Assembly (NCBI GenBank): GCA_029288895.1
Contig: JARIGK010000001.1
Location: 65,446 to 129,445 of the forward strand
From: Candidatus Adlerbacteria bacterium
GTDB lineage: Bacteria; Patescibacteriota; Minisyncoccia; Phycocordibacterales; SBAW01
Reading direction: 5' to 3'
DNA length: 64,000 nucleotides
The position numbers and the translations under genes were made by a program. Positions 2-59,720 of the stretch are shown in pieces. Position 1 is the stretch's first letter, and each line of letters opens with the position of its first letter. The notes beneath the pieces are model-generated. The model was not told where the DNA came from, did no database searches, and was given only the letters and a program-made list of their open reading frames with translations.

Positions 2-2761
2 ACTGCAACAACTTCAATCAACGGTGTATTGACCCAAGGTACAGGCTCAACACAAACAATCTTCCGTAACGGTAACCAGTACATTGGCGCTTCAAGCTTC
101 TTTAACCTCTCATATATTGGTAACCCGCTAACAGAAGGAAGTGGCTACCATGCAAGCGTGTTTAACAACTCGGTTGGTAACCGCGGCGAAGTATTGCAGC
201 TTGGCGGTGCGATGGGATCAAACACTGGCGTCGGTAACTTTATCGGTGCACTCTCGTTCGTAAACTCAAATTCAAGCGGCGGTAACCCTGGCCAGACCGC
301 AACAATCTACGGCTTTAACGACACAGCAGCAAACAACGGTGCGATGGCCTTCTTTACGCAAAATACAAGCGGCACTGCAACAGAAGCAATGCGCATCAAC
401 AGCAGCCAGCAGGTTGGCATTGGCACCACAACGCCTGCGGCGGCACTTGATGTGCGTGGTTCAGGCGGTAACGTTGGCATATTCGAAGCTGACGGCACTG
501 CAACCAACCCGACCCAATTACAGATCCGCGGCGTATCAAATTACAACAAAGTTTTCCAGATCGGCTACAACACAACAAATAGTTACGGTTCGCTCCAGGC
601 GCAAACGGTTGGCTCCACCTTTGACCCAATCGCCCTCAACCCATTGGGCGGCAACGTTGGTATTGGTACAACGACGCCAGGCTCTCCGTTAACTGTGTCT
701 GGTGCTGGCCTTGTCAGTACGTTTTACAATACAAACACGAGTAGTGATCAGCCGGTGCGTATGCTCCAACCAAGCCTTTCTACAGGTAATTCCACATCGC
801 TCGATATTGGTACTGCATGGAATTCAAATTACAACTCCGGTCAATTGCAGTTCACTAACGCGGGAGGTACGGGTAGTCAGTCCAATTATATTGGATTGGG
901 AGTATGGGGACAGACAAATGGTCTTATTGTGAACGGCTTCGGCAATGTTGGTATCGGTACTACATCGCCTGTTGCGACACTTGGCATGACGGGCAGCATC
1001 GGCGTTAACTCGACGCAGCTCTCTATTAATGCAAACGGTAGCGTTGGCGTAGGTACAAATACAACAAATGCGAAATTTACTATCAACGGAACCGGCGGCA
1101 ATGCATCGCACGGCGAGTTGGAAATTTCGAACACAGCCGTTACTTCGAACCTCGGCATCATAGGTATCGAAACAGGAAATAACTCATTGGCAAACGGCGG
1201 CACCTTGGGCGATCTCTCTATCATATCGGCCGGAAGCCTCATTTTGCAGGCGGGCGGCGGGGGAACGGTAAAGTTTAATAACACATCGACGGGGCAGGCT
1301 CAATTCTTCGGCTGGTCACAGCTCGACACCGACCCTAGAAGCGGCGCGATATTCGTAGGCAGCAACTCAGGATTCCGCGGAGTAATCCAATACGGTGCCA
1401 ACCCTTCAAGTTCGCTTTCTATCGACAATACCTACGACTCATCTACGGGTATTGGTATCCAATTTAGAACTCGCACCTCCGGCACCTCAACGACAACTGC
1501 AATGGCTATTCTCAACAATGGCAACATCGGTGTCGGTACAACAAACCCTGGACAGAAATTAACGGTGGCGGGCGCTGACAACTCGGCAACAGTTTCTATT
1601 GGTTTGTTCCGCAGTTCGCTTGATTATGGCCTGCTGCTGTCGACTGTCGGTAGTACAGGCAATTCAAGCATTGTTGCCTCGGGCAGCGGTTCAAGTTTGA
1701 CTCTTGGTGCAAGCGGGACCTCACCTTTTGTAATAGCTTCAAACGGCAACGTCGGTATTGGTAGTACGTCGCCTTCGCGAATAATGTCTATCCAGTCTGC
1801 AGTGTCGACTGCGCAGATGACGGTTGCATACGACACATCGCGCTACACCGACTTCCTCACAAACTCTGTGGGCGACCTTACGATCACGCCGCAGGGCCAA
1901 GACATCTTCAGCAACGACAGCAACCTCTGGATCTGTTCTGGCGGCTCGTGCCCAAGCGGTACGCCAACTGGCACCGGTAACATCATTGTCGAAAACAACA
2001 TCGGTATTGGTACTACGACGCCGAAGTATCGTCTCACTATTGAATCGCAAAACAACACTGACAACCTCTTCCAGATTGCGTCGTCGACAAACCAGAGTAT
2101 CGTCGTTGTAAACGCAAACGGCCGTGTCGGTATCGGCACCTCGACTCCAAGCCAGCAGTTCTCGGTTGCAGACCGCCTCTTCGTTGGCGCAGGCGGTGCG
2201 TCGGGTATGGGTACTGCAACGTCGACCTTCCAAGGCGACATCAAGATCACCGGTAAGCTCGACGTCGGCACCATCGACCCTGTGTACACCATCGACGGCG
2301 TGAAGTACGCAACCTACGGCCACTCGACTGTGGGCCTCAAAGAAGAAGCTGTCGCCGTACTTGAGGTGACAGATAAAAATCCAAAGACCGGCAAGTACGA
2401 AAAGAAAATCTCATTCAAAGATTTGGACAAAGGAAGCGACCTCTGGCTCTTCTACCAAGTCACTGACTTTGGTGATAATTGGAAGAACCTTGTCATCAAC
2501 CTGACGGCGTCGTTCGACGGCTCGGTCTTCTATACCAAGGTGCCGAACGAGGCAGCGGTTGTCGTTTCGGCAGACCAGCCTGGCGAAGTCTCGGCGCGCT
2601 TTATCGCAAACCGCTTCGACTCCGACAAGTGGCCGAATATTCGCCCAGACCAAAACGGGCCGTATAAGGGCCATGAGCTCCAAACTACGCCGACAGGGCA
2701 GGCAACTGCCGTGGGCAGCATAATGCCAATTCGTGCCGATGCCTTTGATCCGGCACAGTAG
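2..2761 (+). CDS. 5'-partial giant extracellular repeat protein with about 40-aa periodic G-N-V-G-I-G-T-T-x-P repeats (tail-fibre-like or beta-helical surface protein). The reading frame is open to the window edge.
   Basis: More than 15 copies of GNVGIGTTTP / GSVGVGTNTT / NIGVGTTNP / RVGIGTSTP motifs at regular spacing. Gly/Asn/Ser/Thr-rich with no Cys until the C-terminus. No stop between position 2 and the annotated TTG at 29. Confidence 0.6.
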   Translation, partial: TATTSINGVLTQGTGSTQTIFRNGNQYIGASSFFNLSYIGNPLTEGSGYHASVFNNSVGNRGEVLQLGGAMGSNTGVGNFIGALSFVNSNSSGGNPGQTATIYGFNDTAANNGAMAFFTQNTSGTATEAMRINSSQQVGIGTTTPAAALDVRGSGGNVGIFEADGTATNPTQLQIRGVSNYNKVFQIGYNTTNSYGSLQAQTVGSTFDPIALNPLGGNVGIGTTTPGSPLTVSGAGLVSTFYNTNTSSDQPVRMLQPSLSTGNSTSLDIGTAWNSNYNSGQLQFTNAGGTGSQSNYIGLGVWGQTNGLIVNGFGNVGIGTTSPVATLGMTGSIGVNSTQLSINANGSVGVGTNTTNAKFTINGTGGNASHGELEISNTAVTSNLGIIGIETGNNSLANGGTLGDLSIISAGSLILQAGGGGTVKFNNTSTGQAQFFGWSQLDTDPRSGAIFVGSNSGFRGVIQYGANPSSSLSIDNTYDSSTGIGIQFRTRTSGTSTTTAMAILNNGNIGVGTTNPGQKLTVAGADNSATVSIGLFRSSLDYGLLLSTVGSTGNSSIVASGSGSSLTLGASGTSPFVIASNGNVGIGSTSPSRIMSIQSAVSTAQMTVAYDTSRYTDFLTNSVGDLTITPQGQDIFSNDSNLWICSGGSCPSGTPTGTGNIIVENNIGIGTTTPKYRLTIESQNNTDNLFQIASSTNQSIVVVNANGRVGIGTSTPSQQFSVADRLFVGAGGASGMGTATSTFQGDIKITGKLDVGTIDPVYTIDGVKYATYGHSTVGLKEEAVAVLEVTDKNPKTGKYEKKISFKDLDKGSDLWLFYQVTDFGDNWKNLVINLTASFDGSVFYTKVPNEAAVVVSADQPGEVSARFIANRFDSDKWPNIRPDQNGPYKGHELQTTPTGQATAVGSIMPIRADAFDPAQ

Positions 2762-4702: not shown

Positions 4703-5151
4703 TTCGTAAGGGGGAGTAGGTCGCCTGCAACAACGGTGTTTGCCTCAAGGCGGCTGCGCTCGAGCGAATTGGTAAATTGAATATAGATCTGTTCGCCTAT
4801 TTGAAACCCTGTTTGTTCAAGCGGCTCTACTGATACGTTAGCAATGACGCCGTCTGCTCCTGGAGTTCCATGGATGCGTGACATGGTTGCGTTCGGGGCG
4901 AGCCATATTTTTGCTGTTGCTGTTCGCCCCATGCCAGCATCATACGAAATGATCATCCACCCCGCATCGGTATTATTTTGAAGCAGCGTTGCAGATCGTC
5001 TCGTGTCTTTTATGACGCCCACTACGTTTGCTTTCGCTCTTTGAAGGTTTGGGTCTTTTGTTGCGTTGGCCTGCATAACATTGAGCGTGATGCTGCCAGC
5101 AAGCAATGCGCTCAATGCAAACAAGAAGGGCGCTGTACTTTTCTGGGTCAT
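4699..5151 (-). CDS. Secreted hypothetical protein (150 aa) with a signal peptide.
   Basis: Hydrophobic N-terminus (MTQKSTAPFLFALSALLAGSITLNVMQA). Convergent with the ligase, with a 4-nt overlap. Confidence 0.45.
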   Translation of the reverse strand: MTQKSTAPFLFALSALLAGSITLNVMQANATKDPNLQRAKANVVGVIKDTRRSATLLQNNTDAGWMIISYDAGMGRTATAKIWLAPNATMSRIHGTPGADGVIANVSVEPLEQTGFQIGEQIYIQFTNSLERSRLEANTVVAGDLLPLTN

Positions 5152-5157
5152 AGGTAG

Positions 5158-5586
5158 TTACTGAGTTGGCGATATAAATATAATCATAGCGTATGGAGTA
5201 GTATTGTTCGGGCTAAGCCACACGGTAGTGCGTATTCGCAGCCCGCTTTTTATTGTTTTTGCTGTGTCCGTTTGGAGCAGCCGCGAATCGACAATTAGTC
5301 CTTGCTCGTCTTGTGTAATAGTACGTACAAGCATGGCCGTGTCATTGTCGTAGTGGATGAGAATCGTGCGCGACACCCGGCCGGGGTACGGGTCTTCTTT
5401 CAGGAGAAATGAATCAGAGGATACCCGAGTAACAGTGCCACTGAGCGATAGCGACATACTGTGTTGCAATGTAAGTGCCGCTGCGGCGCTGCTGTTGTCG
5501 GGCAAGACTAATATCCCCATTGTTGAAGCAACAATAGCTCCAACACAGACGCCAAAGACGATCGCCAATGCTGAAGAAACATTCAT
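5158..5586 (-). CDS. Exported or membrane-anchored hypothetical protein (142 aa).
   Basis: N-terminal TM/signal segment. A TATACT -10 box lies 6 nt upstream of its ATG, on the minus strand at 5593-5598. Confidence 0.45.
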   Translation of the reverse strand: MNVSSALAIVFGVCVGAIVASTMGILVLPDNSSAAAALTLQHSMSLSLSGTVTRVSSDSFLLKEDPYPGRVSRTILIHYDNDTAMLVRTITQDEQGLIVDSRLLQTDTAKTIKSGLRIRTTVWLSPNNTTPYAMIIFISPTQ

Positions 5587-7089: not shown

Positions 7090-7098
7090 GGCACTACT

Positions 7099-8643
7099 AT
7101 GAGAACAGCAGAACATCGAACGCTCTACGTCCGTATTTTTTTGAGCGCCATCTGTCTTGGTGTGTGTCTGTTGAGCGCACGAAATTATACTTCCACGCTG
7201 CCGCTTGGATATAACGTCGTACTTATAAGCATTGATAGTCTGCGCACCGATCATATGAGTTTGTACGGATATGAACGTCCGACAACCCCCACTATCGATG
7301 CGTATGCAAAGGGCGCGGCTGTATTCGACAACTATTTTTCGACGAGCATGATAACCCCGATAAGCGAGATGAGCGTACAAACAGGCACGTACCCATTTAC
7401 GAGCGGCCTCATCAATTTTGAATCCATTCTTTCTCCTAAAGTCGAAACTCTAGCCGAAGTGCTCCATGCACATGGATGGAAGACAGCGTCGTTTGGCTCT
7501 TCGGTCGAGTTCGACCTTCCGGTTTCGAAAATCGATTTCTCCAGAGGGTTTGATGCGTATGTTGGTAATGTCAATCTAAAAGAAAAACCATTGCCGTGGT
7601 TTGGGCGCAACGATTCGCATATAGATGAAGCGCTTGCGTGGGCGAGAAACGCATCATATGGCACGCAGCCGTTCTTTCTGTGGCTACGTATCGGCTCGGC
7701 TCATTGGCCGTATGGGTATGATGAACCTGCGCACGTTACGGACCCGGCCTACGATGGGCCGATGAAAGCAGACATGTCATCCCCTACAGAGCAGGAGATG
7801 ATATCTATGTTTAGCCAACGGTACGGCACTATTTGGAACGGCCGCGAGTATGGAGTGAATGCCGGCCGCAGTAGTGCAGGTGTGCAAGAAGATATTTCAT
7901 ATATTACTGATAGATATGACGATGGCATTATCAAAACAGATCGTGAGCTAGCGCCGCTTCTGGCGTTTCTTTCGCAAACGTATATCGCCGACAGAACGAT
8001 TGTCATTATTGAGTCCGAACACGGAGAAGGGTTAGGGGAAAGGGGATACGTAGCGCATTACGACATATCAGATGATGAAACTCATGTTCCACTTATTATC
8101 AAAGCACCCTTGCTGCGCCCACAAAACGTACAAGATTTGATTTCTGGCGTTGATGTATTCCCCACACTTATGGCCGCACTTCATCTTCCGCAGAAAAAAG
8201 TGGACGGGATAAATTTCCTCCCGCGGCTGTCGGGTGCATCAAGCACTACTCCACGCGGTGAGATATTTTTGACGCGCACGCCGCTGTGGGAGCGAATCTT
8301 GAGTACGGAGGTGCCGTGGCTTTTGCCGCTCGTACCCAAAGACAACGCTGCCAACTATCACGATACGGCACTACGAACAGATGAATGGAAGCTTGTGCAT
8401 CGCACTGCGCGCCAGGCAGAAGAGCAATACTCGTGGTACGGGCACATGAGCGGTGTGCCTGTCGTGCGCCCAGAGTACGAGCTGTACCACATGCCCACTG
8501 ACCCGCACGAGACTATGAATGTGTATGCAGAGTACCCACAGATCGCAGAGGCTCTCAAAGAAAAACTGCTTTCGTGGGAACGTATAACAGAGGGGCGTAG
8601 TACTATACAAATGAAACCAGGAAGCCTTCAGCCGTATTTTTAA
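7099..8643 (+). CDS. Alkaline-phosphatase-superfamily ('sulfatase-like') membrane-anchored enzyme with a Thr nucleophile motif. Likely a phosphodiesterase or phosphotransferase acting on an envelope polymer.
   Basis: N-terminal metal-binding motif ISIDSLRTDHMSLYGY. Nucleophile region ITPISEMSVQTGTYP resembles the NPP/EptA-type T-x-P...TG-x-YP motif, not the sulfatase C/S-x-P-x-R motif. Confidence 0.6.
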   Translation: MRTAEHRTLYVRIFLSAICLGVCLLSARNYTSTLPLGYNVVLISIDSLRTDHMSLYGYERPTTPTIDAYAKGAAVFDNYFSTSMITPISEMSVQTGTYPFTSGLINFESILSPKVETLAEVLHAHGWKTASFGSSVEFDLPVSKIDFSRGFDAYVGNVNLKEKPLPWFGRNDSHIDEALAWARNASYGTQPFFLWLRIGSAHWPYGYDEPAHVTDPAYDGPMKADMSSPTEQEMISMFSQRYGTIWNGREYGVNAGRSSAGVQEDISYITDRYDDGIIKTDRELAPLLAFLSQTYIADRTIVIIESEHGEGLGERGYVAHYDISDDETHVPLIIKAPLLRPQNVQDLISGVDVFPTLMAALHLPQKKVDGINFLPRLSGASSTTPRGEIFLTRTPLWERILSTEVPWLLPLVPKDNAANYHDTALRTDEWKLVHRTARQAEEQYSWYGHMSGVPVVRPEYELYHMPTDPHETMNVYAEYPQIAEALKEKLLSWERITEGRSTIQMKPGSLQPYF

Positions 8644-8648
8644 GTACT

Positions 8649-10091
8649 ATGAATCTCACGAAATTTTTCTCGACGCGGTCCGGTATACAAGTGTTAGTTG
8701 CGGTTGGTCTGTGTGTACTTGTAGGTTTTTTTATTTTTCTGGGAGAGCATAGATCTGCGTCGTCTGGCCCATCGTTTGGAGTTTGTCGCGGGTGCAACGT
8801 CCTTATCATAGGCGTTGATACACTCCGTGCTGACCGTTTGCATGTCTTTGGCTATAGCCGAAATACGACACCAACCATTGATGCCCTTGCCGCAAAAGGG
8901 TACGCCTTTTCAAATGCAATAGCGCCAGCAAGTTGGACTGTCCCTTCGTTTATGTCTATTTTTACGGGCACGTACCCTTCGGTGCATGGTGTTACAAATA
9001 AGTTTATTTCGTTTTCACAAGACCAAAAGCAACTTTCAAATTTGAAAATAACGGCTCCGCAAATCCAAACGCTTGCAGAAGTGCTCAAAGCAGAAGGCTA
9101 TGCAACGGGTGGCTTTACTGGAGACGCGGGCGTGTCGGGAAAGTTTGGATATAACCTTGGGTTTGATGCGTATACCGATGAGAAAGCGTTTGGAGGCTTA
9201 GAAAACAGCAAGAGCCACGCGTTAGCGTGGGCAGATCAGCTCGGCGACAAACATTTCTTTATGTTTTTCCACGGCTACGATTTGCATGGGCAATCGGCTC
9301 CGTCTGCTACAAACCCGTTTCTAGACTCTACGTATCACGGGCCCTACACCGGTAGTCCTCAAGAAGAATCAGTGTTGCGCGAGGGCGTGTTGACGCCCAA
9401 AGGCATCACGCTGACTCCGCAAGATGCGAAGTTTTGGAGCGATACGTATGACGGCAAAGTTGTACAGGCAGACAAAGAATTACAAACATTTTTGACAGAC
9501 ATGTCCGTGCGCGGATTGCTTAAGAACACACTCATCGTGTTGGTGTCAGACCATGGAGAGGAGTTTTATGAACACAAAGGGTTTGACCACGGACATACGC
9601 TCTATGACGAACTCGTACACGTCCCGCTTATCTTCGTTGTCCCAGGGATGCAGGGAGGCCAGATAATCAAGAGCCAAGTCAGTACCATGGATGTTATGCC
9701 GACCATCCTCTATCTCCTTGGGATTACCCCGCGCGGAGAGCTGTCCAATCAGTTGTCAGGCAGAGCGAATCTGGCATCGTACTTTACTGCCACATCAACG
9801 AAAGGGTATGACGTTTTTTCGGAAACTAACTACCGCGGGTACACCTATAAAAGGAGCGTGCGCACAGCGGATGGATGGAAGTATATTTTGACCCTCGAAA
9901 CCGGGAAAGAAGAACTATATAACCTCACTGTCGACAAAGGAGAGCATACGAATCTTGTTTTGACAGACGCAGATAAGGCAGAACAATTACGTGTTGAATT
10001 AAGGAATCATCTCGAGCAGGATCTACACTACGATATGTCGAAAACGCCAGCCGTTACATGCCTCCCTGTATATGACGGGGAATGTAAGTAA
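8649..10091 (+). CDS. Paralogous alkaline-phosphatase-superfamily enzyme with a Thr nucleophile motif, membrane-anchored.
   Basis: IIGVDTLRADRLHVFGY and SWTVPSFMSIFTGTYP motifs. It lies 6 nt after the previous paralog. Confidence 0.6.
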   Translation: MNLTKFFSTRSGIQVLVAVGLCVLVGFFIFLGEHRSASSGPSFGVCRGCNVLIIGVDTLRADRLHVFGYSRNTTPTIDALAAKGYAFSNAIAPASWTVPSFMSIFTGTYPSVHGVTNKFISFSQDQKQLSNLKITAPQIQTLAEVLKAEGYATGGFTGDAGVSGKFGYNLGFDAYTDEKAFGGLENSKSHALAWADQLGDKHFFMFFHGYDLHGQSAPSATNPFLDSTYHGPYTGSPQEESVLREGVLTPKGITLTPQDAKFWSDTYDGKVVQADKELQTFLTDMSVRGLLKNTLIVLVSDHGEEFYEHKGFDHGHTLYDELVHVPLIFVVPGMQGGQIIKSQVSTMDVMPTILYLLGITPRGELSNQLSGRANLASYFTATSTKGYDVFSETNYRGYTYKRSVRTADGWKYILTLETGKEELYNLTVDKGEHTNLVLTDADKAEQLRVELRNHLEQDLHYDMSKTPAVTCLPVYDGECK

Positions 10092-43849: not shown

Positions 43850-45043
43850 TTAGTAGCCTGCGTTTGCCGAGGCGGTGTTATTACTCTCGTTGCTTTCGTA
43901 GAGGTAGTTGTTTGGGTCAACCGTGATGCTTACCGAGCCGCCGTAGGTGTTGTAGTACGGCGTTGGCTGATACTGGTTGTAGTAATTGCCAGTGGTCTGG
44001 TAGCCCACGTACGTTGGGTAGTTGTAGACACTGCTGTTTGAAGGGCAGGTGTATGAGACGCCAGGGTAGTTGTACGCACCGTTGTAGGTGTAGTTATTGG
44101 TGTAGCTGCAGTTGCTGTAGGTGTACTGGTACGACGACGGGTACGAATTGTAGTACACGTTGTTGTAATTATTGTAGTCGTAGGTGTTGTAGCCGTAATA
44201 GTTGTTCATCGTAAAGCCCAAAGTGTAGACGACTTTGTCGCCGGGGTAGAGCTTCTGCTGCGCCTGTGATGTGTAGTTGTATGTTGGGCTCGTCGGCAAT
44301 GATGCGTTGAAGGTCCAGCCAGCTGGTGCCATATTGGTGCCAACGTTCTGCACAGTAAAGTTGACGCTGTAGCGGCCCGGTGCAGTCTGTGTGACGCTGT
44401 TGATGGACACTGCCAAGTCAGGCTGGCCAAACAAATTGGTGGTGCGATGCGACGCAACGTAGGTGCTGGTGCTCGACGTCGGCTTTGTGGTCGTTGTAGT
44501 TGTCGTCTTTGCTGGTGCCGATGCAGCCTTGCCCGCGGCAATTGTTACGATGCCGCTGCCTGAGGCACCCACTGTGTTGTTTGCCAAGTTGCGTGCCGCG
44601 ACAGTGACAGTAACTGCTGCTGCAGTAGCCGTAGAGTTGGTTGCTGTGAGCTGGATGTTTTGTGTTGCGTTCGTGTAGTTAAACGGCGTATTGCATGCAA
44701 CGGTTTGCATTTTGCCTGTTGGGAGCGGTGCCTGCATCGAGACGCCATCGGCGCACGAGTACGAAATGTCGTATGCAATGTTGGCGTTGTCGGCACCTGT
44801 GCGATTGAACGAGACGGTAAACGGCGAGCCCGAGTTTACGGTTGCAGGTACGGTGACTGCGACCTGTTCGGTCTGTGTCTGCTGCGTCGTAGTAGGGGAG
44901 TGCGTGCCCGTGTTACCGAGGAAGCCCCACAATACGAAGGCGAGCTGGATAATACCCCATGCGCCCAAGAGCAAAATGGCAATAAGGCCGATAACGGCTA
45001 CTACCTGAAGCGCCCTGTCTTTAAATGTTGAGTTTTGTGCCAT
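43850..45043 (-). CDS. Membrane-anchored surface protein with a CARDB-like domain and Thr-rich and Tyr/Asn-rich low-complexity regions.
   Basis: N-terminal TM segment, TTTTTTTKPTSS linker, NYYGYNTYDYNNYNN region, C-terminal ...SVSITVDPNNYLYESNESNN typical of CARDB. Confidence 0.55.
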   Translation of the reverse strand: MAQNSTFKDRALQVVAVIGLIAILLLGAWGIIQLAFVLWGFLGNTGTHSPTTTQQTQTEQVAVTVPATVNSGSPFTVSFNRTGADNANIAYDISYSCADGVSMQAPLPTGKMQTVACNTPFNYTNATQNIQLTATNSTATAAAVTVTVAARNLANNTVGASGSGIVTIAAGKAASAPAKTTTTTTTKPTSSTSTYVASHRTTNLFGQPDLAVSINSVTQTAPGRYSVNFTVQNVGTNMAPAGWTFNASLPTSPTYNYTSQAQQKLYPGDKVVYTLGFTMNNYYGYNTYDYNNYNNVYYNSYPSSYQYTYSNCSYTNNYTYNGAYNYPGVSYTCPSNSSVYNYPTYVGYQTTGNYYNQYQPTPYYNTYGGSVSITVDPNNYLYESNESNNTASANAGY

Positions 45044-45256: not shown

Positions 45257-45910
45257 ATGCCTGCAACGACTCCTACCGCTACTGTAACGCTGCCGATCGT
45301 GGGTCTTCCCAAGCTGGCGCCGAAGAATACTGCCACCTGGTGGACCCCGAAGGTTGCGTACAGCCTTCTCGGGGTTCTGGTTTTCCTGGTGTTGGTGGGG
45401 TTCGCGATCTTCATGATCGCACGCTTCACTAACCCGGCAGCGCCGCTGCAGATCACCTGCGCCGACCACACGGTCGCTTCCTCGCAAGGGGAATGCGATG
45501 CGCGTGCGGAGGCCAACCGCCAGAAGGCCGAAGCCGAGCGTCTCCTCCGGGAGAATCGTGAGGCCGAGGCTCGTCGCCAGCAGGAGCGTCGCGATGCGGA
45601 AGCGCAACGCGAAGCGGAACGCCGTGAGGCCGACGCCAAGCGCGAACGAGATCGTCTCCAAGACGAACTCAATCGCGAACGCAATCGGCAGCAGCCCGTG
45701 GTTCAACCCACGGTCTATACTCCGGCGCCGCCGCTCGTGATCCAGCAATCGACACCTGCCCCTTCGTCTCGCCGTTATGCCTACGGGTGCACGGCAGATG
45801 GAACCAGGGTTGTCGGCAGGGGAACCAACCCCTGTGCTTGCACGATCGATGTGGCGGTTGGGCAAAAGTGCCCTGTCATCCGCAACGATCCGAACTATCA
45901 CGGCGGCTAA
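45257..45910 (+). CDS. Membrane protein with an Arg/Glu-rich coiled-coil segment and a Cys-containing C-terminal domain. GC-rich with a canonical Shine-Dalgarno sequence.
   Basis: AAAGGAGA lies 6 nt upstream of the ATG, with a 5' UTR over 100 nt. AEAERLLRENREAEARRQQERRDAEAQREAERREADAKRERDR. Confidence 0.5.
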   Translation: MPATTPTATVTLPIVGLPKLAPKNTATWWTPKVAYSLLGVLVFLVLVGFAIFMIARFTNPAAPLQITCADHTVASSQGECDARAEANRQKAEAERLLRENREAEARRQQERRDAEAQREAERREADAKRERDRLQDELNRERNRQQPVVQPTVYTPAPPLVIQQSTPAPSSRRYAYGCTADGTRVVGRGTNPCACTIDVAVGQKCPVIRNDPNYHGG

Positions 45911-46060: not shown

Positions 46061-47089
46061 ATGACGAATACAAACAACATTTCAACTGCACGCCGCGCAC
46101 TTTTCGGCTCTTTCGCTATGCTTGTAGTCGCATCAATGTTCTCATTGGGGTTTGTGCACACTGCCCATGCCCAGGAAGACGGCGTCATCGGCTCATACGA
46201 TACTGATGGAAGTATCGGATCCTACGATACTGGGAGTATTGGATCGTACGCCCCTAATGGCACTATCGGTACTTATACAGACGGTGTAGTGGGGACATAC
46301 AACAATAACGTTGATGGTGTCGTTGGTACTTATTCTTCCAATGTTGATGGAGCTATCGGTACTTATGTCGATGGTGTAGTGGGGACATACAACAATAACG
46401 TTGATGGCGTTATTGGGACATATACTTCAGCCCCAACAACGTATGTTTCCGGTGGCTACGCTGGTTCCTACTATCCCGCATACTACGGTTACGGTGGTTA
46501 CTACGGCGGTGGTTCGTACTACGGCTCGACATATTACGGAACTTCGTACTACCCAACCTACACGCCTAACTACGGCACAAACACGTACAACAGCAGCACG
46601 ACCTATGTCTCGAACGGTTACGCTTCTAGCGGCTCGTCTGGCAGCAGCGTTATCTACAGCGGCTCGACGTATTCATACCCTGTCATCACCGGTGTGTACC
46701 CGGTCGCAATGGCAGGCGGCCCGTCAGTGAGCCTCTCGGCAATTCCGTACACTGGCCTCGACCTTGGCGTAGGCGGCACGATCGCATATTGGTCATTCCT
46801 TATCCTCTGGTGCCTCTTTGCGGCATACCTCATCACCGTCAAGCGCGTGCATAACAAACTTATAACGATGCTCTTCGGCGAAAAGGATGCGCACGTGGCT
46901 GTCGCAGCGCACCAGGTGCACGAAGCAGTTGCTCACAAAGAGCAGGCACACGCGGGCCATGGGCACGATACACACGGCGCGTCGCACGCAAAACCTCACG
47001 CTCACGCACCAGTTGCAGCAGCTACCCAGGTAATCGACCCAATCGACCCCTTCATCCAATCGCAGATTGCGAACCGTACCGAAAAGTAA
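46061..47089 (+). CDS. Secreted low-complexity surface protein, probable sortase substrate 1. DG[VA][IV]GTY repeats, Gly/Tyr-rich, C-terminal IPYTGLDLG-TM-KRVH...LFGE module plus a His-rich tail.
   Basis: Signal peptide, about 11 DGxxGTY repeats, then SAIPYTGLDLGVGGTIAYWSFLILWCLFAAYLITVKRVHNKLITMLFGE and HVAVAAHQVHEAVAHKEQAHAGHGHDTHGASHAKPHAHA. Confidence 0.6.
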   Translation: MTNTNNISTARRALFGSFAMLVVASMFSLGFVHTAHAQEDGVIGSYDTDGSIGSYDTGSIGSYAPNGTIGTYTDGVVGTYNNNVDGVVGTYSSNVDGAIGTYVDGVVGTYNNNVDGVIGTYTSAPTTYVSGGYAGSYYPAYYGYGGYYGGGSYYGSTYYGTSYYPTYTPNYGTNTYNSSTTYVSNGYASSGSSGSSVIYSGSTYSYPVITGVYPVAMAGGPSVSLSAIPYTGLDLGVGGTIAYWSFLILWCLFAAYLITVKRVHNKLITMLFGEKDAHVAVAAHQVHEAVAHKEQAHAGHGHDTHGASHAKPHAHAPVAAATQVIDPIDPFIQSQIANRTEK

Positions 47090-47109
47090 ATACGGTACTA
47101 TAGAACAGA

Positions 47110-47790
47110 TTGACACGGCGCCCTCAACGGCGTAGGTTGTCCGCAGACGATATGGCTGCACAAAAAGGTATAGTCAATGAAATAGGAGAACGACGCGGCG
47201 CTTTTGCGGCCGCGTTTGTCGTGATTTTTGTCGCGATGGTTGTCTTTCTTGGGAGTGTTGATGCGCTGCCAAATCCTATCCACCCGTCGGTCTCTGAGGA
47301 GCCGGGCGTGAGTGGGGAAGTGCGCCAGACAGCATCCAGCACGCCGCAAGCGCCTGTGCGCATTGTTGCGCGCGACATTAGCCTCGATGCGACGGTTTCA
47401 AACCCGACATCAGTCGACGTTGATGTACTCGACCAAGCACTGCTTACAGGCGCGGTGCGCTACCCAACATCGGCACTCTTGGGTGTCGACGGTACGCTGC
47501 TTATGTTTGGCCACAGCAGTTACTTGCCCGTGGTGCACAACCAGGCGTACAAGACCTTCGACGATATACAAAAATTGAAGACGGGTTCTATCGTAAGTGT
47601 CTATTCATCCGACACGCGCTACGATTACAGTGTTGTGGATGTCCGTGTTGCAAACGCAAACGAAGACTCTATTACGCTCGACCCAGTGGGCAAGCATCTG
47701 ACGCTTGTCACCTGCGACTCGTTCGCCTCCAAGAGCAATCGTTTCATTGTCGTCGCCGATTTTGTTGGGGCCTACAGCCTCGTTCATTAA
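47110..47790 (+). CDS. Sortase-family transpeptidase, membrane-anchored.
   Basis: N-terminal TM segment. Catalytic His (LLMFGHSSY), TLxTC Cys motif (HLTLVTCDSF) and a downstream Arg (SNRFIVVADF) at sortase-typical spacing. Confidence 0.75.
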   Translation: MTRRPQRRRLSADDMAAQKGIVNEIGERRGAFAAAFVVIFVAMVVFLGSVDALPNPIHPSVSEEPGVSGEVRQTASSTPQAPVRIVARDISLDATVSNPTSVDVDVLDQALLTGAVRYPTSALLGVDGTLLMFGHSSYLPVVHNQAYKTFDDIQKLKTGSIVSVYSSDTRYDYSVVDVRVANANEDSITLDPVGKHLTLVTCDSFASKSNRFIVVADFVGAYSLVH

Positions 47791-47911
47791 AGCTTCATCT
47801 GCTCCACGGTACGTTTCTGTGAGTCCATCATTGAGAATCTCCCTCAGAGGTTTTTAGTGATGCTCTCGCAATCGCGGGAGTGTTCGCAACCACATACAGG
47901 GGAGACCCTCG

Positions 47912-48430
47912 ATGTATAAGTTCTTTTCGGTCTTTGCTCTCCTGCTTGGTATTTCGGTACCTTGTGTGGCGAGCGCTCAGGCGGTCGACTGCAGTTTGCC
48001 TGCGTTCATGTACTCCGAGTCATGTCGGATGCATGGTCGTACGGCTCATGGGCCTATACCCTACAAGCTGCCGATGATCTGCACCATTATTCGCATCGCT
48101 CAGCCGGTGCGAAAGGTGACGTTCGTCGTTCGGGATGCTGCCGGCAACGTCCTCAACCCGCCCGAGGTGGAAACTCAGCACACGTCCGATAAAAAGGACC
48201 ATGAAGTGTTCTGTGTTGGCCGCCACTGGTGGGAGAAAGCTCGGGACACCGGAGGCACCGTTGAGTTCTGTATCGAACCTGAGCCCGAGCGTGGCCTCGT
48301 TGAGAATTTCCACCGCAAGCGTTGGACATTCCGCACCTTCGAGGTCACCGAGCGTCTCAAGTATGGTGAGCGAGATTATGGAGCAATGGCAAAATATTAC
48401 GCCGCTCTTAAGACACCGTTCCCCAAGTAG
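47912..48430 (+). CDS. Secreted hypothetical protein (172 aa) with a signal peptide and 8 Cys.
   Basis: MYKFFSVFALLLGISVPCVASAQA signal peptide. Lies between the sortase and substrate 2. Confidence 0.45.
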   Translation: MYKFFSVFALLLGISVPCVASAQAVDCSLPAFMYSESCRMHGRTAHGPIPYKLPMICTIIRIAQPVRKVTFVVRDAAGNVLNPPEVETQHTSDKKDHEVFCVGRHWWEKARDTGGTVEFCIEPEPERGLVENFHRKRWTFRTFEVTERLKYGERDYGAMAKYYAALKTPFPK

Positions 48431-48498
48431 TCTGTGGAACCTGCGAGCGCATTTGAGCGCTCGCAGGACCACATTTTTTCTGAACATATAAACACCTT

Positions 48499-49380
48499 AT
48501 GACAAAAGCACACACAACCGCATCCATTTTTAAGACACTGATCGTGCCGCTTTTTGTCGCGCTGTATTTTATTGGTGGTGTTTCGTTTGCGATGCATCGC
48601 GCAGCATTCAACTCATTTTTTGATATTCATATTGCACACGCAGAAGGTGACGGCGGCGGCGACGGCGGAGGCGGTGATGGTGGTGGCGACGGTGGAGGTG
48701 GTGGTGACGGAGGTGGTAGCTCAGGTGACGCAGGAGGCAGCTCTGGCGGCGGCTCTGCTGGTGATGGCACTGGTGATGGTGAAGGTGATGCCGGAGTTGG
48801 CGATAGCGATGGGTGCTGCGGCCCGTCAGGCCCAGATGCGCCATCTGCTCCAGATTCACCAGCATCACCTTCTTCACCAGGGCCCGGTCCTGGTTCGGGC
48901 GATGGCGGCGGCGATTATATATTCCCGCCGACTCCTCCAGCGCCTGGTTGCACCACAAATTGCAATCCGGTCCCTCCTGTTTGCCCAGCAGGCACTACAG
49001 GCACATATCCAAACTGCACAACGCCGCCTGGTGGCTGCACTACAAACTGCAACCCACCTCCGCCGCCGGGTTGTACAACAAACTGCAATCCAACGCCTCC
49101 GCCCCCGCCTCCCGGCGGTGGAGGGTGCAGCTTTGGCTGCGGTGGTGGCGGTGGTTCATTTGCCTACAATTACTATCCGCCAACACTGAGTTACTACGCG
49201 ATCCCGCAAGTTACTCTTACGCAAGTGCCATACACCGGCCTTGATATGGGGCCACTTGCAACAGCGCTCTACTGGCTCTTCCTTGGCGTGTGGACGCTGC
49301 TTGGCGCTTACATGATCATCATCAAGCGCATGCATACAACTATTGCACAGAGAATGAACACCTTACTGTTCGGCGAATAA
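48499..49380 (+). CDS. Secreted low-complexity protein, probable sortase substrate 2. Gly/Asp-rich, Pro-rich, with GCTTNCNP repeats and a C-terminal VPYTGLDMG-TM-KRMH...LLFGE module.
   Basis: GDGGGDGGGG... region. Three GCTTNCNP(P) repeats. C-terminus QVPYTGLDMGPLATALYWLFLGVWTLLGAYMIIIKRMHTTIAQRMNTLLFGE. Confidence 0.6.
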   Translation: MTKAHTTASIFKTLIVPLFVALYFIGGVSFAMHRAAFNSFFDIHIAHAEGDGGGDGGGGDGGGDGGGGGDGGGSSGDAGGSSGGGSAGDGTGDGEGDAGVGDSDGCCGPSGPDAPSAPDSPASPSSPGPGPGSGDGGGDYIFPPTPPAPGCTTNCNPVPPVCPAGTTGTYPNCTTPPGGCTTNCNPPPPPGCTTNCNPTPPPPPPGGGGCSFGCGGGGGSFAYNYYPPTLSYYAIPQVTLTQVPYTGLDMGPLATALYWLFLGVWTLLGAYMIIIKRMHTTIAQRMNTLLFGE

Positions 49381-49390
49381 AAACACATAC

Positions 49391-49428
49391 GAAAAACCCC
49401 TCGAGAATCTCGAGGGGTTTTTTGTTTT
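49391..49428. terminator. Bidirectional rho-independent terminator between substrate 2 and thrS.
   Basis: GAAAAA-CCCCTCGAG-AAT-CTCGAGGGG-TTTTTTGTTTT. Confidence 0.8.
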
Positions 49429-50641
49429 ATATATTCGCGCGTTCACGGATGCGTTCGAGCATTGGCTCTACAAATTCATTCAGTGAGACAGTTTGTTTAT
49501 CGCCATTGCGATTATTTTCAACAGTCACTGTTTGGTCGGCAACTTCTTTGTCGCCCACAACAATGGTGCAGGGGATCTTGCCTGTCTTTGCTTCGCGGAT
49601 GCGTTTGCCAAGCGAGTCGTCGGCCAACATCTGCACGCGGACGCCGCGGCCCTTCAATGTACTAACGATGCTTTGTGCGTATGCGTTATGTGCTTCACCC
49701 ACGGGGAGCACGGCAACCTGCACAGGCGAGAGCCAGAGGGGGAGTGCGCCGTCGAAGTGCTCGAGCAAGATAGCAGCGCAGCGCTCAAGCGAGCCTGCGA
49801 TAGCCGCATGGATCATCACGATACGTTCCTTCTGGCCTTGTTCGTTGATGCAGGTCAAATCAAAACGTTCAGGGATGTTCATGTCGAGCTGAATCGTTGC
49901 AACTTGCCACTCGCGGCCTGCCGAGTTCTTTGCCATAAAGTCGAGCTTCGGGCCGTACAGCGCCGCTTCACCCGGACCTTCAAAGGTGTCTGCACCGCGC
50001 TCTTCTGCCAAGCTGCGCAACTCGCCTTCTGCAGTATCCCAAATGGCCGGTGTGCCGATGTATTTCTCTGGCGTTGCCGGGTCGCGGAACGAAAGGCGCA
50101 CGCGCAAGGTAAAGCCAAACTTTTTGTAGAAGGTGTCGATGATATCCCAGATCTTCAAGAACTCTTCGCGTACTTGGGTGGTGCGGCAAAAGACGTGCGC
50201 GTCATCTTGGGTAATTGAAAGCACGCGTGTGAGGCCGCCCAATTCACCCGACTGCTCGTCGCGATACACCATCGTTGTTTCTGCGTAGCGTTGCGGCATC
50301 TCGCGATAGCTGTGCGGTTTGCGGTCGAAGATCTGCGTGTGGTGCGGGCAGTTCATCGGCTTCATCGCATACTCGCGGCCTTCGCGCGAGGTAATTTTGA
50401 AGAGATCTTCAGCAAATTTTTCCCAGTGGCCAGAGGTGACATAGAGTTCTTTTTTTGTGATATGGGGGATGGTTACCTTTTCGTAGCCGCGCGCTTCGCG
50501 CATCTCCCAAATAAATTTATCGAGCTCGTTGCGGAAAATAGTCCCTTTAGGGGTCCACAGTGGGAGCCCAGGGCCTACCAATTCTGAAAATGTAAACAGG
50601 TCCTGCTCTTTGCCAATGACGCGATGATCTCGTTCTTCCAT
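49427..50641 (-). CDS. thrS: Threonine-tRNA ligase, catalytic core plus anticodon-binding domain only (404 aa; no N-terminal TGS or editing domains).
   Basis: Class II motifs (FRNELDKF motif 1, YAMKPMNCPHH, GTIQLD-like motif 3) and a C-terminal anticodon-binding domain. Preceded by a T-box leader. Confidence 0.85.
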   Translation of the reverse strand: MEERDHRVIGKEQDLFTFSELVGPGLPLWTPKGTIFRNELDKFIWEMREARGYEKVTIPHITKKELYVTSGHWEKFAEDLFKITSREGREYAMKPMNCPHHTQIFDRKPHSYREMPQRYAETTMVYRDEQSGELGGLTRVLSITQDDAHVFCRTTQVREEFLKIWDIIDTFYKKFGFTLRVRLSFRDPATPEKYIGTPAIWDTAEGELRSLAEERGADTFEGPGEAALYGPKLDFMAKNSAGREWQVATIQLDMNIPERFDLTCINEQGQKERIVMIHAAIAGSLERCAAILLEHFDGALPLWLSPVQVAVLPVGEAHNAYAQSIVSTLKGRGVRVQMLADDSLGKRIREAKTGKIPCTIVVGDKEVADQTVTVENNRNGDKQTVSLNEFVEPMLERIRERANI

Positions 50642-55415: not shown

Positions 55416-56315
55416 ATGGCGAATAGACATCTTTCACGGTCGGTCGTACTCCAAACCCTGTTTGAATGGGACTTTCGCAATTGTTCAAAAGAGCAACTTT
55501 CTGAGTCGCTTCTTCGTAATGCGGGTGAGTTCGCGCCCGGCGCGGGCGATATGCCGTTTATGGAAGAGCTCCTCCAGGGCGTTGTCGACAGAAAGGCCGA
55601 TCTCGACTTGGTGATAGAAAAAGCTGCACCGGAGTGGCCGCTTGAACGTATCGCATTAGTCGACAGAAATGTCCTCCGCCTTGGCCTCTACGAATTGCTC
55701 TTTTCTGATCGAGAAAAAGTGCCGGCAAAAGTTGCAATCAACGAAGCTATCGAACTTGCTAAAAGCTTTGGCGGCGAAAACAGCGGACGCTTTGTAAACG
55801 GTGTGCTCGGTGCTGTCTACAAAGAGCTTGGCGAGCCAGGCAAAGACGAAGTCTCTAAAAAGAAAAAAGATGTTCCGTACGAGCAACTGCCAGTGCAGAA
55901 GCTTGGCGGCGCTATAGTGTACGCGCGCCACAATGGTGAAGTGTATTTGGCGCTGGTGCACGATATCTTCGGCCACTGGACGCTGTCGAAAGGAAAAATT
56001 GGCGATAAGGAGGAGTTTGCAAACGAGACGGTCGAGGAGGGAACCATCCGCGAGATCAAAGAAGAGATGGGCCTCGACATCAAACTGATAGAAAAGGTGG
56101 GCGAGAACGAGTACGTAGCGTCGGACCCTAAAACGGGCAAGAAGCGCAAGCATGTGGTGTATTTCTTGGCAGAGGCGCCCTATGGCGAAATAAGTTTAAA
56201 GGTGACAGGCGGGCTCGACGATGCACGATGGTTCAAAGTGTCGGATGCGCTTGAGCTTAATTTTTATGACGATATGTTGCCGCTTGTTACAAAAGCATTG
56301 CAGCAGATTAAATAA
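55416..56315 (+). CDS. nusB: NusB antitermination factor fused to a C-terminal NUDIX hydrolase domain.
   Basis: N-terminal 140 aa NusB-like (RSVVLQTLFEWDF...RFVNGVLGAVYKEL). The C-terminal part has the Nudix box GKIGDKEEFANETVEEGTIREIKEEMGL. Confidence 0.75.
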   Translation: MANRHLSRSVVLQTLFEWDFRNCSKEQLSESLLRNAGEFAPGAGDMPFMEELLQGVVDRKADLDLVIEKAAPEWPLERIALVDRNVLRLGLYELLFSDREKVPAKVAINEAIELAKSFGGENSGRFVNGVLGAVYKELGEPGKDEVSKKKKDVPYEQLPVQKLGGAIVYARHNGEVYLALVHDIFGHWTLSKGKIGDKEEFANETVEEGTIREIKEEMGLDIKLIEKVGENEYVASDPKTGKKRKHVVYFLAEAPYGEISLKVTGGLDDARWFKVSDALELNFYDDMLPLVTKALQQIK

Positions 56316-57132: not shown

Positions 57133-57450
57133 ATGCCTAGTGAAAACAAGGAGAAGCAAGACCTACATCAACGTCTTGTCGGCTGGCATGCCCATAAATT
57201 TGGTCTTAGCCATGAAGCCGATGAAGATGAGGTGATGGATCACGATCGGAAGTTGCGCGCGCAGGCGCAAAACCTTCCTGAAGACGCCAATTGGTTCCGT
57301 GTCTTTTGTGCTGAGCTCAAGTCAGGAATCAAAAATCCCACCATCCTTGCGTTCTGGGATTCGGATGGGGGATTGAGTTGGTCCGACGATCCTTCAATGG
57401 CGCTTGATCCTGCTCGGGAAGCGCATACAATTTTCTGCAAGGAAGAATAG
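57133..57450 (+). CDS. Hypothetical protein (about 105 aa). Start uncertain; the track ORF begins at 57049.
   Basis: GGAGG lies 5 nt upstream of ATG 57133. No recognisable motif. Confidence 0.3.
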   Translation: MPSENKEKQDLHQRLVGWHAHKFGLSHEADEDEVMDHDRKLRAQAQNLPEDANWFRVFCAELKSGIKNPTILAFWDSDGGLSWSDDPSMALDPAREAHTIFCKEE

Positions 57451-57506
57451 TGTTTAAGCTCCGCGACATGCGTCGCGGAGCTTTTTCTTTGCTACAATGT
57501 GAGGCA

Positions 57507-59720
57507 ATGCGGCTGAAGTCGATAGAACTCACGGGGTTTAAGTCATTTGCGCGCAAGACGGAATTGCAATTTGCGTCGGCTATTACTGCTATCGTGGGAC
57601 CAAATGGTTCTGGTAAATCGAACATCGCTGAGTCGTTCCGCTTTGTGCTTGGCGAGCAGTCGATGAAGTCTATGCGCGGCAAGCGCGGTGAAGATATGAT
57701 CTGGAACGGTTCAGGTGCGGTGCCGCGTGGCGGCCGTGCGTCCGTTAAACTGGTCTTCGACAATAGCGACCGCGCACTCAATTTGGATTTTGATGAAGTA
57801 ACGCTCGAGCGTGTCGTGTACCGCGACGGCGGTAACGACTATTTGCTTAACGGTAGTCAGGTGCGCTTGCGCGATATCTCGGAATTGTTGGCGCAGGCAA
57901 ACATTGGCGCATCGGGCCACCATATTATTTCGCAAGGCGAGGCAGACAGGATACTTTCGTCATCATCAAAAGAGCGCCGCGAGATGCTCGAAGACGCACT
58001 TGGCCTCACCGCCTATTTGTATAAAAAAGAAGAAGCAGAGAAAAAGTTAGAGAAAACTGCCGAGAACATGCGCGAGGTCGAAAGCTTGCGCCGCGAATTG
58101 GCACCGCATCTGCGCTTTTTGCAAACACAGGTAAAGAAAATAGAGCAGTCGCAGAAATTACGCGAAGAAACAACACTCGCCTATATCGAATACTTTAAAC
58201 GCGAAAGCGTCTACTTGAATGTCGCAGGTGCCATGCTCCGCGAAGAAAAGAGCGCACCACAAAGCGAATATACAAATCTGCAGGGCCGCATCGAACATTT
58301 GCGCGCCGAAGTCGCCAAAAAGCAGGGCGACACAGGGGCGTCCGAACTAGTGGCGCTCGAAGCTGAGGGTCGGGCTGCTGCCTCGCGCGAGGCGTCGCTT
58401 GTTCGCGACATTGGCCGCATCGAAGGAGAGATTTCTGCACACGAACGCATTGCACATACGGTGCAAGACTCTGTGCCTGGTGCTGAAGCGCGCGCATTTG
58501 CGCAGCGCGTCGAGCGTGATTTGGAAAGCGCACTCCAAGGTGGCGACATGCACGCAACACTGTCGGCGCTTATTGCATTGGCAAAAGATTTTTTGCATAA
58601 GATTACGCGCGTCCAAGAGCAGACCGGCGACTCTGTTGAGGATTTGAAGCAGAAGAAAGAATCTTTAGAACGTGAACTTGAGACGCTGCGCGCAACCCAA
58701 GAGGGCATCCAAGCAAAAGTCCGCGAATTGCGCACCAAGATCGAAGGCGAAAAGGATGCCAACCGCGAAGCCGAGCGCGAATTGTTCCAAGCAATGGCAA
58801 AGCGAAGCGAGTTGGAAGCAGTGCTTTCAAACCTGCGCAACAGGGAAGATATGCTCGCGCGCGACGAAGCGCAGTTTAAACAAGAATTGGGCGAGGCTGC
58901 TGCACTCTTGGGCCGCGAAGTTGCAGAGTACGAACAGACAAATGTATATGCCGAAAACGGCGGGGCTATTTCCGATGCCGAAATTGCAGACGAGCCGCGG
59001 CAAAACCAAGAAGAGCGCCGCCGTGCACTTGAGCGAAAGAAGATTCGTTTGGAGGAGCTTGGTGCCGGCAACTCGAGCGAGGTATTGAAAGAGCACAAAG
59101 AAACAACCGAACGCGATGAATTTTTGGCGCGCGAATTGAACGACCTCGAGGCATCGGCAGTGTCACTCAAACAGTTGATTGTGGAACTCACGGAGACATT
59201 GTCTGTCCGCTTTACCGAAGGTGTCGACAAAATCAACAGCGAGTTCGATCGCTTCTTTAAGTTGATGTTTGGCGGCGGCTCGGCAGCCTTGAATATCGTC
59301 AAAGAAAAGAAATTTGCTCGTGGTGAAGAAAATAATGAGAGTGATGAAGACAACGAAGATGTTGAAGAGGGTGTGGAAATTGGTATCTCGCTGCCCCACA
59401 AGCGCATCAAGGGGTTGCACATGCTTTCGGGCGGCGAACGCGCGCTTACATCCATTGCGCTTATCTTTGCGATGAGCCAGGTAAACCCGCCGCCATTTTT
59501 GATCTTGGATGAAACAGAAGCTGCCCTCGACGAAGCAAACTCACGCCGCTATGGCGACATGATAGAAAGTTTGGCAGAAAAATCGCAGCTTATTTTGATC
59601 ACGCACAACCGCGAAACAATGTCGCGCGCAGGTATCCTCTACGGCATCACGATGGGCTCCGACGGCGTCTCCAAACTCCTCTCCGTTAAATTCGAAGATG
59701 CACTCGCGGTGGCGAAGTAA
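57507..59720 (+). CDS. smc: SMC-family chromosome segregation ATPase, unusually short (about 738 aa).
   Basis: N-terminal MRLKSIELTGFKSF and Walker A GPNGSGKSN. Coiled-coil middle. C-terminal LSGGERALTSIALIFA signature plus Walker B LILDETEAALD. Synteny rnc-smc. Confidence 0.75.
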   Translation: MRLKSIELTGFKSFARKTELQFASAITAIVGPNGSGKSNIAESFRFVLGEQSMKSMRGKRGEDMIWNGSGAVPRGGRASVKLVFDNSDRALNLDFDEVTLERVVYRDGGNDYLLNGSQVRLRDISELLAQANIGASGHHIISQGEADRILSSSSKERREMLEDALGLTAYLYKKEEAEKKLEKTAENMREVESLRRELAPHLRFLQTQVKKIEQSQKLREETTLAYIEYFKRESVYLNVAGAMLREEKSAPQSEYTNLQGRIEHLRAEVAKKQGDTGASELVALEAEGRAAASREASLVRDIGRIEGEISAHERIAHTVQDSVPGAEARAFAQRVERDLESALQGGDMHATLSALIALAKDFLHKITRVQEQTGDSVEDLKQKKESLERELETLRATQEGIQAKVRELRTKIEGEKDANREAERELFQAMAKRSELEAVLSNLRNREDMLARDEAQFKQELGEAAALLGREVAEYEQTNVYAENGGAISDAEIADEPRQNQEERRRALERKKIRLEELGAGNSSEVLKEHKETTERDEFLARELNDLEASAVSLKQLIVELTETLSVRFTEGVDKINSEFDRFFKLMFGGGSAALNIVKEKKFARGEENNESDEDNEDVEEGVEIGISLPHKRIKGLHMLSGGERALTSIALIFAMSQVNPPPFLILDETEAALDEANSRRYGDMIESLAEKSQLILITHNRETMSRAGILYGITMGSDGVSKLLSVKFEDALAVAK

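Follow-up and report, generated by a model that had tools for sequence, protein, structure and literature searches.

A 64,000-nt stretch of DNA from Candidatus Adlerbacteria bacterium (contig JARIGK010000001.1, positions 65,446 to 129,445 of the forward strand; hereafter the window, whose own numbering is used below unless another locus is named) was analysed for a sortase gene and the two genes of secreted proteins that flank it. The sortase and these two proteins, designated A and B, probably represent a dedicated sortase-target cassette of Paceibacteria (Patescibacteria; candidate phyla radiation (CPR)), which, judging from sequence, would be vertically inherited and would use an extended sorting signal with a predicted cleavage site. 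The pairing of one sortase with two cognate substrates was well supported. Four co-oriented open reading frames (ORFs) on the plus strand were found at 46061-49380: substrate A (46061..47089; 342 amino acids (aa) from ATG), the sortase, an ORF of 172 aa and substrate B (48499..49380; 293 aa). The initial annotation had placed the sortase at 47110..47790. The ORF was retained, but the public gene call (P0001, 100% identical, 212 aa) starts at the ATG at 47152 and runs to 47790, rather than from the TTG at 47110, which would give 226 aa.

A and B were compared by BLASTP. Only the C-terminal module aligned (28/58 identical, 48%; E = 6e-16), and its elements were found where they had been annotated, in agreement with the initial proposal that two flanking secreted proteins share a portable C-terminal module. 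Similarity restricted to the C-terminus fits a portable signal. A consists of an N-terminal signal-like segment (…HTAHA/QEDG), DG[VI][IV]G[ST]Y repeats, a low-complexity ectodomain rich in Y, G and S, and the full C-terminal module. On the plus strand, this module comprises the signature PSVSLSAIPYTGLDLG (46721..46768, with PYTG at 46745-46756 and the predicted cut between T and G), the transmembrane (TM) helix GVGGTIAYWSFLILWCLFAAYLITVK (46766-46843), the juxtamembrane segment KRVHNKLITMLFGE (KRVH at 46841-46852 and LFGE at 46871-46882, ending at 46882), a cytoplasmic His/Ala-rich linker (46883..47044; 54 aa, 11 His) and the C-terminal motif DPFIQSQIANRTEK (47045..47086, including DPFIQSQI at 47045-47068). 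AlphaFold2 (AF2) modelled the module of A as a continuous helix over module residues 22-61 and a short terminal helix at 116-126; the linker was modelled with low confidence and was largely coil. In B, a signal peptide is followed by a Gly/Asp-rich region, then by a Pro-rich region containing GCTTNCNP repeats and finally by a short-form module (49204..49377, plus strand), made up of PQVTLTQVPYTGLDMG (49204-49251), a TM helix (49249-49326), KRMH (49324-49335) and LFGE (49366-49377), which is followed directly by the stop codon. The module of B thus has neither the linker nor the terminal motif present in A. PYTG followed by a TM segment was found at only these two sites in a six-frame scan of the 64 kb, and the module profile scored 100-105 bits on A and B. 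No Pfam domains were detected in either protein, including pilin, CnaB and SpaA domains; no search was aimed specifically at the pilin motif Lys or the E-box. Relatives of the N-terminal part of A were found only in close Adlerbacteria-like loci, and B-type N-terminal regions were found in 25 loci.

The module profile was searched against 1.84 billion proteins (cluster representatives at 50% identity). Other proteins with the module were numerous: 913 cluster representatives were matched at E <= 1e-3 and 314 at E <= 1e-10, and the match extended to the C-terminus in all 150 of the module-profile matches listed. A is its own representative in this library (P0147). A word-index search with the tail of A as a single sequence returned nothing, and an alignment-based search returned short or fragmentary gene calls only. 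N-terminal signal-like segments were present in 118 of 128 full-length representatives. The extracellular family signature reads (T)PYV[TS]LS-x-Φ-PYTG-[LF][DE][LM]G. PYTG was found in 143 of the 144 top cluster representatives, with Tyr always at position X. Among the top 143, the residue before the Pro of this core was Val in 116 (81%), Ala in 11, Thr in 9, Ile in 4 and Leu in 3, and L[DE]LG followed PYTG in 124. A hydrophobic TM segment was present directly after the signature and carried invariant aromatic positions (…YW.FL..W…..AY…), with Y29, W30, L33, W36, Y42 and K47 invariant in alignment A1. The TM helix was followed by K[KR] and a juxtamembrane helix (VQN…LFG[DES]; 15-20 aa conserved), by a variable linker (14-80 residues; disordered by prediction), and by a terminal peptide, (I/V)D-x-F-[IV]-L-S-Q-I-N-R, which was present in 142 of the top 143 representatives of a profile that favours the long form. 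For the consensus juxtamembrane helix, a fraction of 0.016 of 2000 residue shuffles reached the observed amphipathicity. The terminal motif was essentially confined to module proteins in the fetched loci, and pairs of long-tailed and short-tailed targets were also found in loci L001 and L003.

These counts were compared with the features first read from A and B. The initial annotation had listed three departures from LPXTG (I or V in the first position, an LDxG extension and a long conserved cytoplasmic tail). Val or another residue in the first position, L[DE]LG and the conserved tail held across the top 143 representatives, but the P-x-T-G core is canonical, and LPYTG occurs in the close relatives L001 and L003. 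Features that had gone unnoticed were the invariant Tyr, the upstream PYV[TS]LS, the terminal DxF(I/V)LSQI and a divergently encoded CARDB-like membrane protein (described below). A His-rich tail of about 45 residues, possibly metal-binding, had also been described; it is indeed His-rich in A, but is a linker that ends in the conserved (I/V)D-x-F-(I/V)-x-S-Q-I. Nor did His-richness hold up as a family trait: linkers contained a median of 2 His, with at least 4 in 38 of 140 and none in 32 of 140. His-richness is therefore recurrent and does not define the family, and metal binding is at most a lineage-specific speculation.

GTDB species genomes were scanned with a degenerate pattern, and sortases and targets were counted per fetched locus with local hidden Markov models (HMMs). 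The scan yielded 56 module loci, each in a different assembly and each from Patescibacteria; Adler-, Nomura-, Kaiser- and Taylorbacteria and Paceibacterota were represented, along with some records that carry the label Saccharibacteria. With the patterns used, a second distant locus was never found in any one genome. A family sortase was encoded on the same strand in 45 of the 56 loci, usually 0.6-3 kb from the target, and nearly all misses were contig-end truncations. Where more than 5 kb was available upstream of the first target, the sortase was present in 33/33 loci, which upholds the proposed pairing of module and enzyme. A single target was found in 34 of the 45 sortase-containing loci, every syntenic long-contig locus encoded one or two module-ending proteins, and a scan of L001-L009 and the window revealed no further candidate substrate motif. 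On long contigs carrying sortase homologues, the gene order was PheT, GyrB, a divergent membrane protein of ~300-400 aa, the sortase, the target(s), threonyl-tRNA synthetase (ThrRS; minus strand) and DnaE (minus strand). The window has the gene order of these related long contigs, and the cassette is embedded between the housekeeping genes PheT-GyrB and ThrRS-DnaE. The gene linkage is strict and ancient.

The distribution also bears on whether the shared C-terminus of A and B could be trivial paralogy, left by a recent local duplication and carrying no functional signal. The two genes lie 1.4 kb apart on the same strand, as such a duplication would predict. However, the remaining regions of A and B are unrelated, the module occurs on many unrelated ectodomains (the 913 clusters; the 56 species-level genomes), and its invariant residues are kept down to 35-40% module identity, which makes this explanation extremely improbable. 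As a separate observation, locus L019 contains a small ORF (4717-5046) directly after, and overlapping, the sortase gene; it encodes a degenerate signature (MEPLHTGLALG), a TM helix and a full tail with DEFLMAQI. This ORF, which has no ectodomain, could be a pseudogene or a hint of the tail functioning alone.

The sortase matched Pfam PF04203 (peptidase C60) at 60.6 bits (cutoff 26.6; E = 1.6e-16). Its catalytic residues are H121, C188 and R197 (codons at 47512-47514, 47713-47715 and 47740-47742, plus strand), and the corresponding GHSSY-His, TLVTC-Cys and SNRF-Arg were invariant across 55 homologues, as expected from the conserved His, TLVTC-Cys and Arg named in the initial annotation. A total of 1759 sortase homologues were collected; those with source names were from Paceibacterota, Adlerbacteria or Patescibacteria. 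In the AF2 model (predicted local distance difference test score, 85), residues 15-35 form a TM helix at the N-terminus, which a disordered linker joins to the beta-barrel of sortases; the fold is that of an eight-stranded barrel anchored in the membrane by its N-terminal part. By Foldseek, sortase structures from classes E, A and C were matched at E ~1e-10 with indistinguishable scores; template modelling scores of the top matches were about 0.55 (query-normalised) and 0.66-0.78 (target-normalised). The best PDB sequence match, B. anthracis SrtA, was weak (E = 5.7e-9). Among the NCBIfam class models, the best match was class E (32 bits vs a cutoff of 160 for the window sortase; about 32-40 bits over the family), followed by classes C, D and GN at 24-30 bits against cutoffs of 140-165 (class C, 29 vs 160; TIGR03784, class GN, 24 vs 158). 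The generic model TIGR01076 was just missed (36.6 vs 39.35 bits), and the class A model was absent among the NCBIfam matches. Over the 55 family members, the best E-value for a class model was 4.7e-11, and none came near any class cutoff. Assignment to a known class therefore failed by NCBIfam scores, by PDB sequence matches and by Foldseek ranking; the protein is a genuine sortase of a clade outside the tested curated class models.

More distant loci (L059-L065) were examined for the elements retained together with the enzyme. The sortase is kept in these loci (164-204 bits on the family HMM), as is the signature, [VF]SL[SA]Q[VL]PYTG[FL][ED]… followed by a TM helix (also written [VF]SLSQVPYTGF[ED]AGP-TM). 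Behind the TM helix, the tail of the window type gives way to unrelated cytoplasmic regions, 100-300 aa long and conserved across those loci (PYTG-TM proteins at L059 2571-4775, L060 6651-8477, L062 5613-9041, L063 3-1742 and L065 366-2906), with motifs …LLS[SP][DE]A… and P[KR]EDGW… and a second helical domain. Ectodomains of these distant targets contain SpaA or PKD domains, which are of a kind typically seen in surface proteins. Cytoplasmic regions of this length are most unusual in sortase substrates. Neither the long cytoplasmic domains nor the tail of A gave a significant match in Pfam or among PDB sequences. DxF(I/V)LSQI was also considered as a truncated first helix of the distant cytoplasmic domain, and this was rejected (hhalign probability 0.3%). 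At all levels of divergence only the P-Y-T-G signature tracks the sortase, which is the strongest argument for the signature as the cleavage site.

Based on the established sortase mechanism, A and B would be exported by the Sec pathway via their N-terminal signal peptides and retained in the membrane by the C-terminal TM helix and the K/R stop-transfer residues. The membrane-anchored sortase would then cut the Thr-Gly bond of PYTG, forming a thioacyl intermediate on its Cys, and the ectodomain (rich in S, T, Y, G, P and N) would be transferred to an envelope amine acting as nucleophile, for which a peptidoglycan precursor is the likeliest candidate. The peptide VTLSAVPYTGLDLG is the predicted cleavage substrate of the sortase catalytic domain. 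The whole signal can be read as an extended version of the classical tripartite signal, with a longer signature, a conserved aromatic TM helix, a juxtamembrane helix and, in the long form, a linker and short peptide. The initial annotation had suggested a distinct recognition mode that included KRxH…LFGE. Because the catalytic domain is predicted to be extracellular (TM helix 15-35), it should not be able to read this cytoplasmic sequence, and on the model such recognition of the tail by the catalytic domain would be topologically impossible; the TM helix and tail would have to act in the membrane or the cytoplasm. Possible roles include docking to the TM helix of the sortase, retention or positioning, or a role of the remnant after cleavage. 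A Phe stripe is conserved in the sortase TM helix (F18 and F22 invariant, F26 nearly so), so docking of this stripe with the substrate helix, TM to TM, may occur and is a reasonable hypothesis. Placed at the end of a disordered linker, the terminal peptide is built like a docking motif for a putative cytoplasmic partner.

Several observations weigh against a dedicated cassette with a cleavable signal. L048 (module genes 3819-5189 and 6684-8318) is the only fetched locus with a pair of module proteins in which a family sortase was missing both from the 3.8 kb upstream and from the 8 kb downstream; it is one possible exception, and a sortase may lie further away or may be absent. No cutoff of the NCBIfam class models B, C, D, E, F and GN was reached by the sortase, and specificity is therefore not transferable from a characterised class. 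The curated LPXTG anchor models (PF00746, TIGR01167) did not match A or B at E <= 0.1. The protein does not end in a basic cluster: 14 (B) to 81 (A) residues lie beyond K-R, and across the family a median of 92 residues follow the Gly of PYTG. More generally, 30-110 residues beyond the basic residues (100-300 in the distant relatives) are atypical of discarded signals. Finally, amphipathicity of the juxtamembrane helix was not significant for A and B of the window (shuffle fractions 0.30 and 0.38).

The length and conservation of the tail raise the alternative that the module is a permanent anchor of uncleaved bitopic proteins, which would couple the ectodomain to a cytoplasmic partner, with PYTG being structural and the sortase acting elsewhere. 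The TM helix, juxtamembrane helix and terminal peptide are indeed conserved far beyond usual discarded sorting signals, and the conserved 100-300 aa domains behind the TM helix of the distant relatives point the same way. This alternative was nevertheless judged very unlikely, as the sole element kept with the sortase is the extracellular P-Y-T-G just before the TM helix, where sortases cut, the sortase linkage is 33/33, and L001-L009 and the window contain no other candidate substrate motif on which the enzyme might act. A different possibility, tentative and on balance unlikely, is that cleavage at PYT|G splits a bitopic precursor into a wall-linked ectodomain and a functional, membrane-tethered cytoplasmic piece. 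This piece would comprise the TM helix, juxtamembrane helix, linker and DxF(I/V)LSQI in proteins of the window type, and a cytoplasmic domain of 100-300 aa in the distant relatives, whose large domains are a hint of a functional remnant. If so, display of surface proteins would be tied to a partner in the cytoplasm that serves positioning, signalling or quality control. To our knowledge, a sortase-dependent transmembrane link of this kind has not been described for LPXTG systems. Strong selection on the membrane and cytoplasmic parts questions the view of sequence behind the cleavage site as disposable.

The nature of the acceptor was considered together with the most conserved neighbour of the sortase, a CARDB-like gene (43850..45043, minus strand). 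The gene product is an extracellular protein, anchored by a TM segment at its N-terminus, that combines an Ig-like domain with a CARDB-like one (weak Pfam CARDB match), the latter being split by a Tyr/Asn-rich insert. Homologues were found by jackhmmer in 50 fetched loci besides the window. In the sortase-containing GTDB loci, the gene was present in 41/45, and it was directly upstream and divergent in 31. This neighbour lends some weight to a scheme in which the sortase ligates or polymerises A and B, or joins both to the CARDB-like protein, to build a fibre or surface layer in place of anchoring to peptidoglycan. A sortase between two targets resembles pilus islands, a SpaA domain occurs in a distant target, and the weak similarity to the NCBIfam class C model is comparable to that to class E. 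The single target of 34/45 loci, however, argues against ligation of two substrates, and neither A nor B has a pilin or Ig domain by Pfam. The secondary-structure summary of the sortase model gave no evidence of a lid-like element of the class C type. The only conserved Lys seen in the partner, that of PGDK, was rejected as a conserved acceptor because distant members carry H, R or G at this position, and the CARDB-like homologues showed no invariant Lys. Ligation of this kind was accordingly regarded as quite unlikely, and anchoring of each ectodomain to an envelope amine by a dedicated sortase was retained as the preferred reading.

The targets of dedicated systems of the class GN type are vWFA-type proteins. 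The cassette was compared with these and with other known systems, using the criteria for tripartite signals and dedicated systems of the Haft preprint (10.1101/2023.06.07.544157). As in LPXTG (class A) and class E (LAXTG) systems, the substrates have a signal peptide and a P-x-T-G just before a TM helix that is followed by Lys/Arg, and the enzyme is a membrane-anchored Cys transpeptidase with a His-Cys-Arg triad and a beta-barrel, with class E and A structures among its best fold matches. Unlike LPXTG signals, the Paceibacteria signal has Val (81%) in place of Leu in the first position and an invariant Tyr at X, is extended on both sides (PYV[TS]LS… and L[DE]LG) and has a conserved TM sequence; where a terminal Arg cluster would be expected, it carries a long conserved tail (a helix of 15-20 aa, usually with a linker of 14-80 aa and the terminal motif). 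Dedicated systems, such as JDVT-CTERM (Haft) or the class GN ‘marine’ sortase (TIGR03784) and the one target encoded next to it, share with this cassette the 1-3 targets beside the enzyme. Enzyme and target, whose co-encoding marks a dedicated system, were found together in all GTDB loci whose upstream flank exceeded 5 kb (33/33), and gene-neighbourhood conservation is the main evidence here, as it is for those systems. The cassette differs from the class GN and JDVT-CTERM systems in lineage (Patescibacteria), in motif and in its low-complexity targets, and, unlike dedicated systems of sporadic distribution, it lies in conserved housekeeping synteny. Like class C pilus islands, the window has two targets flanking a sortase on one strand, and a SpaA-type domain is present in a distant target; unlike in those islands, pilin, CnaB and SpaA domains are missing from A and B, most loci are single-target, and the class C score is far below its cutoff (29 bits vs 160).

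Sortases have been reported as frequent in CPR bacteria (Méheust 2019, PMC6744442) and common in CPR genomes (PMC5220378). No description of the PYTG signal, or of what CPR sortases recognise or display, was found in the papers retrieved on sortases in CPR, Patescibacteria or Parcubacteria, and the protein-family libraries contain no description of the cassette. CPR cell envelopes are poorly understood, and the cassette provides a concrete, testable pair of enzyme and motif (VPYTG-L-D/E-L-G). It also defines roughly 900 clusters of predicted surface proteins for a major CPR class. If strictly dependent on P-Y-T-G, the sortase could also serve as an orthogonal ligation tool.

The remaining genes and signals around the cassette were annotated as follows. 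The ORF between the sortase and B (47912..48430, plus strand) encodes a secreted protein of 172 aa with no Pfam or NCBIfam match; its homologues were limited to 6 of the fetched loci, all close relatives and in part duplicates of one genome region, and it lies outside the conserved core. The gene between the CARDB-like gene and A (45257..45910, plus strand) encodes a protein of 217 aa that has a single TM helix and a highly charged segment rich in Arg, Glu and Ala. It was found only in the closest relatives (L003, L004 and L037) and is not a core component. A strong, bidirectional hairpin resembling an intrinsic terminator (17-bp stem; 49389..49425, no strand assigned) closes both the unit of A, sortase, 172-aa ORF and B and the convergent ThrRS gene. 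Between A and B, no terminator-like hairpin of comparable strength was found; two weaker terminator-like matches (stems of 7 and 10 pairs) lie at 47204-47239, within the sortase gene. The annotated parts of the window showed no mur genes. The threonyl-tRNA-synthetase-like gene (49427..50641, minus strand) encodes 404 aa with a class II core and an anticodon-binding domain, without N-terminal TGS/editing domains, and this short form (402-409 aa) was present in all related loci. Elsewhere in the window, two adjacent sulfatase-family genes (7099..10091, plus strand; 514 and 480 aa) are surrounded by large ORFs with no Pfam match (e.g., 29..2761, 910 aa). A single ORF at 55416..56315 (plus strand) fuses an N-terminal NusB domain to a C-terminal NUDIX hydrolase domain. 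At 57450..59720 (plus strand), an SMC_N-family protein of 756 aa is encoded, which is much shorter than typical bacterial SMC proteins.

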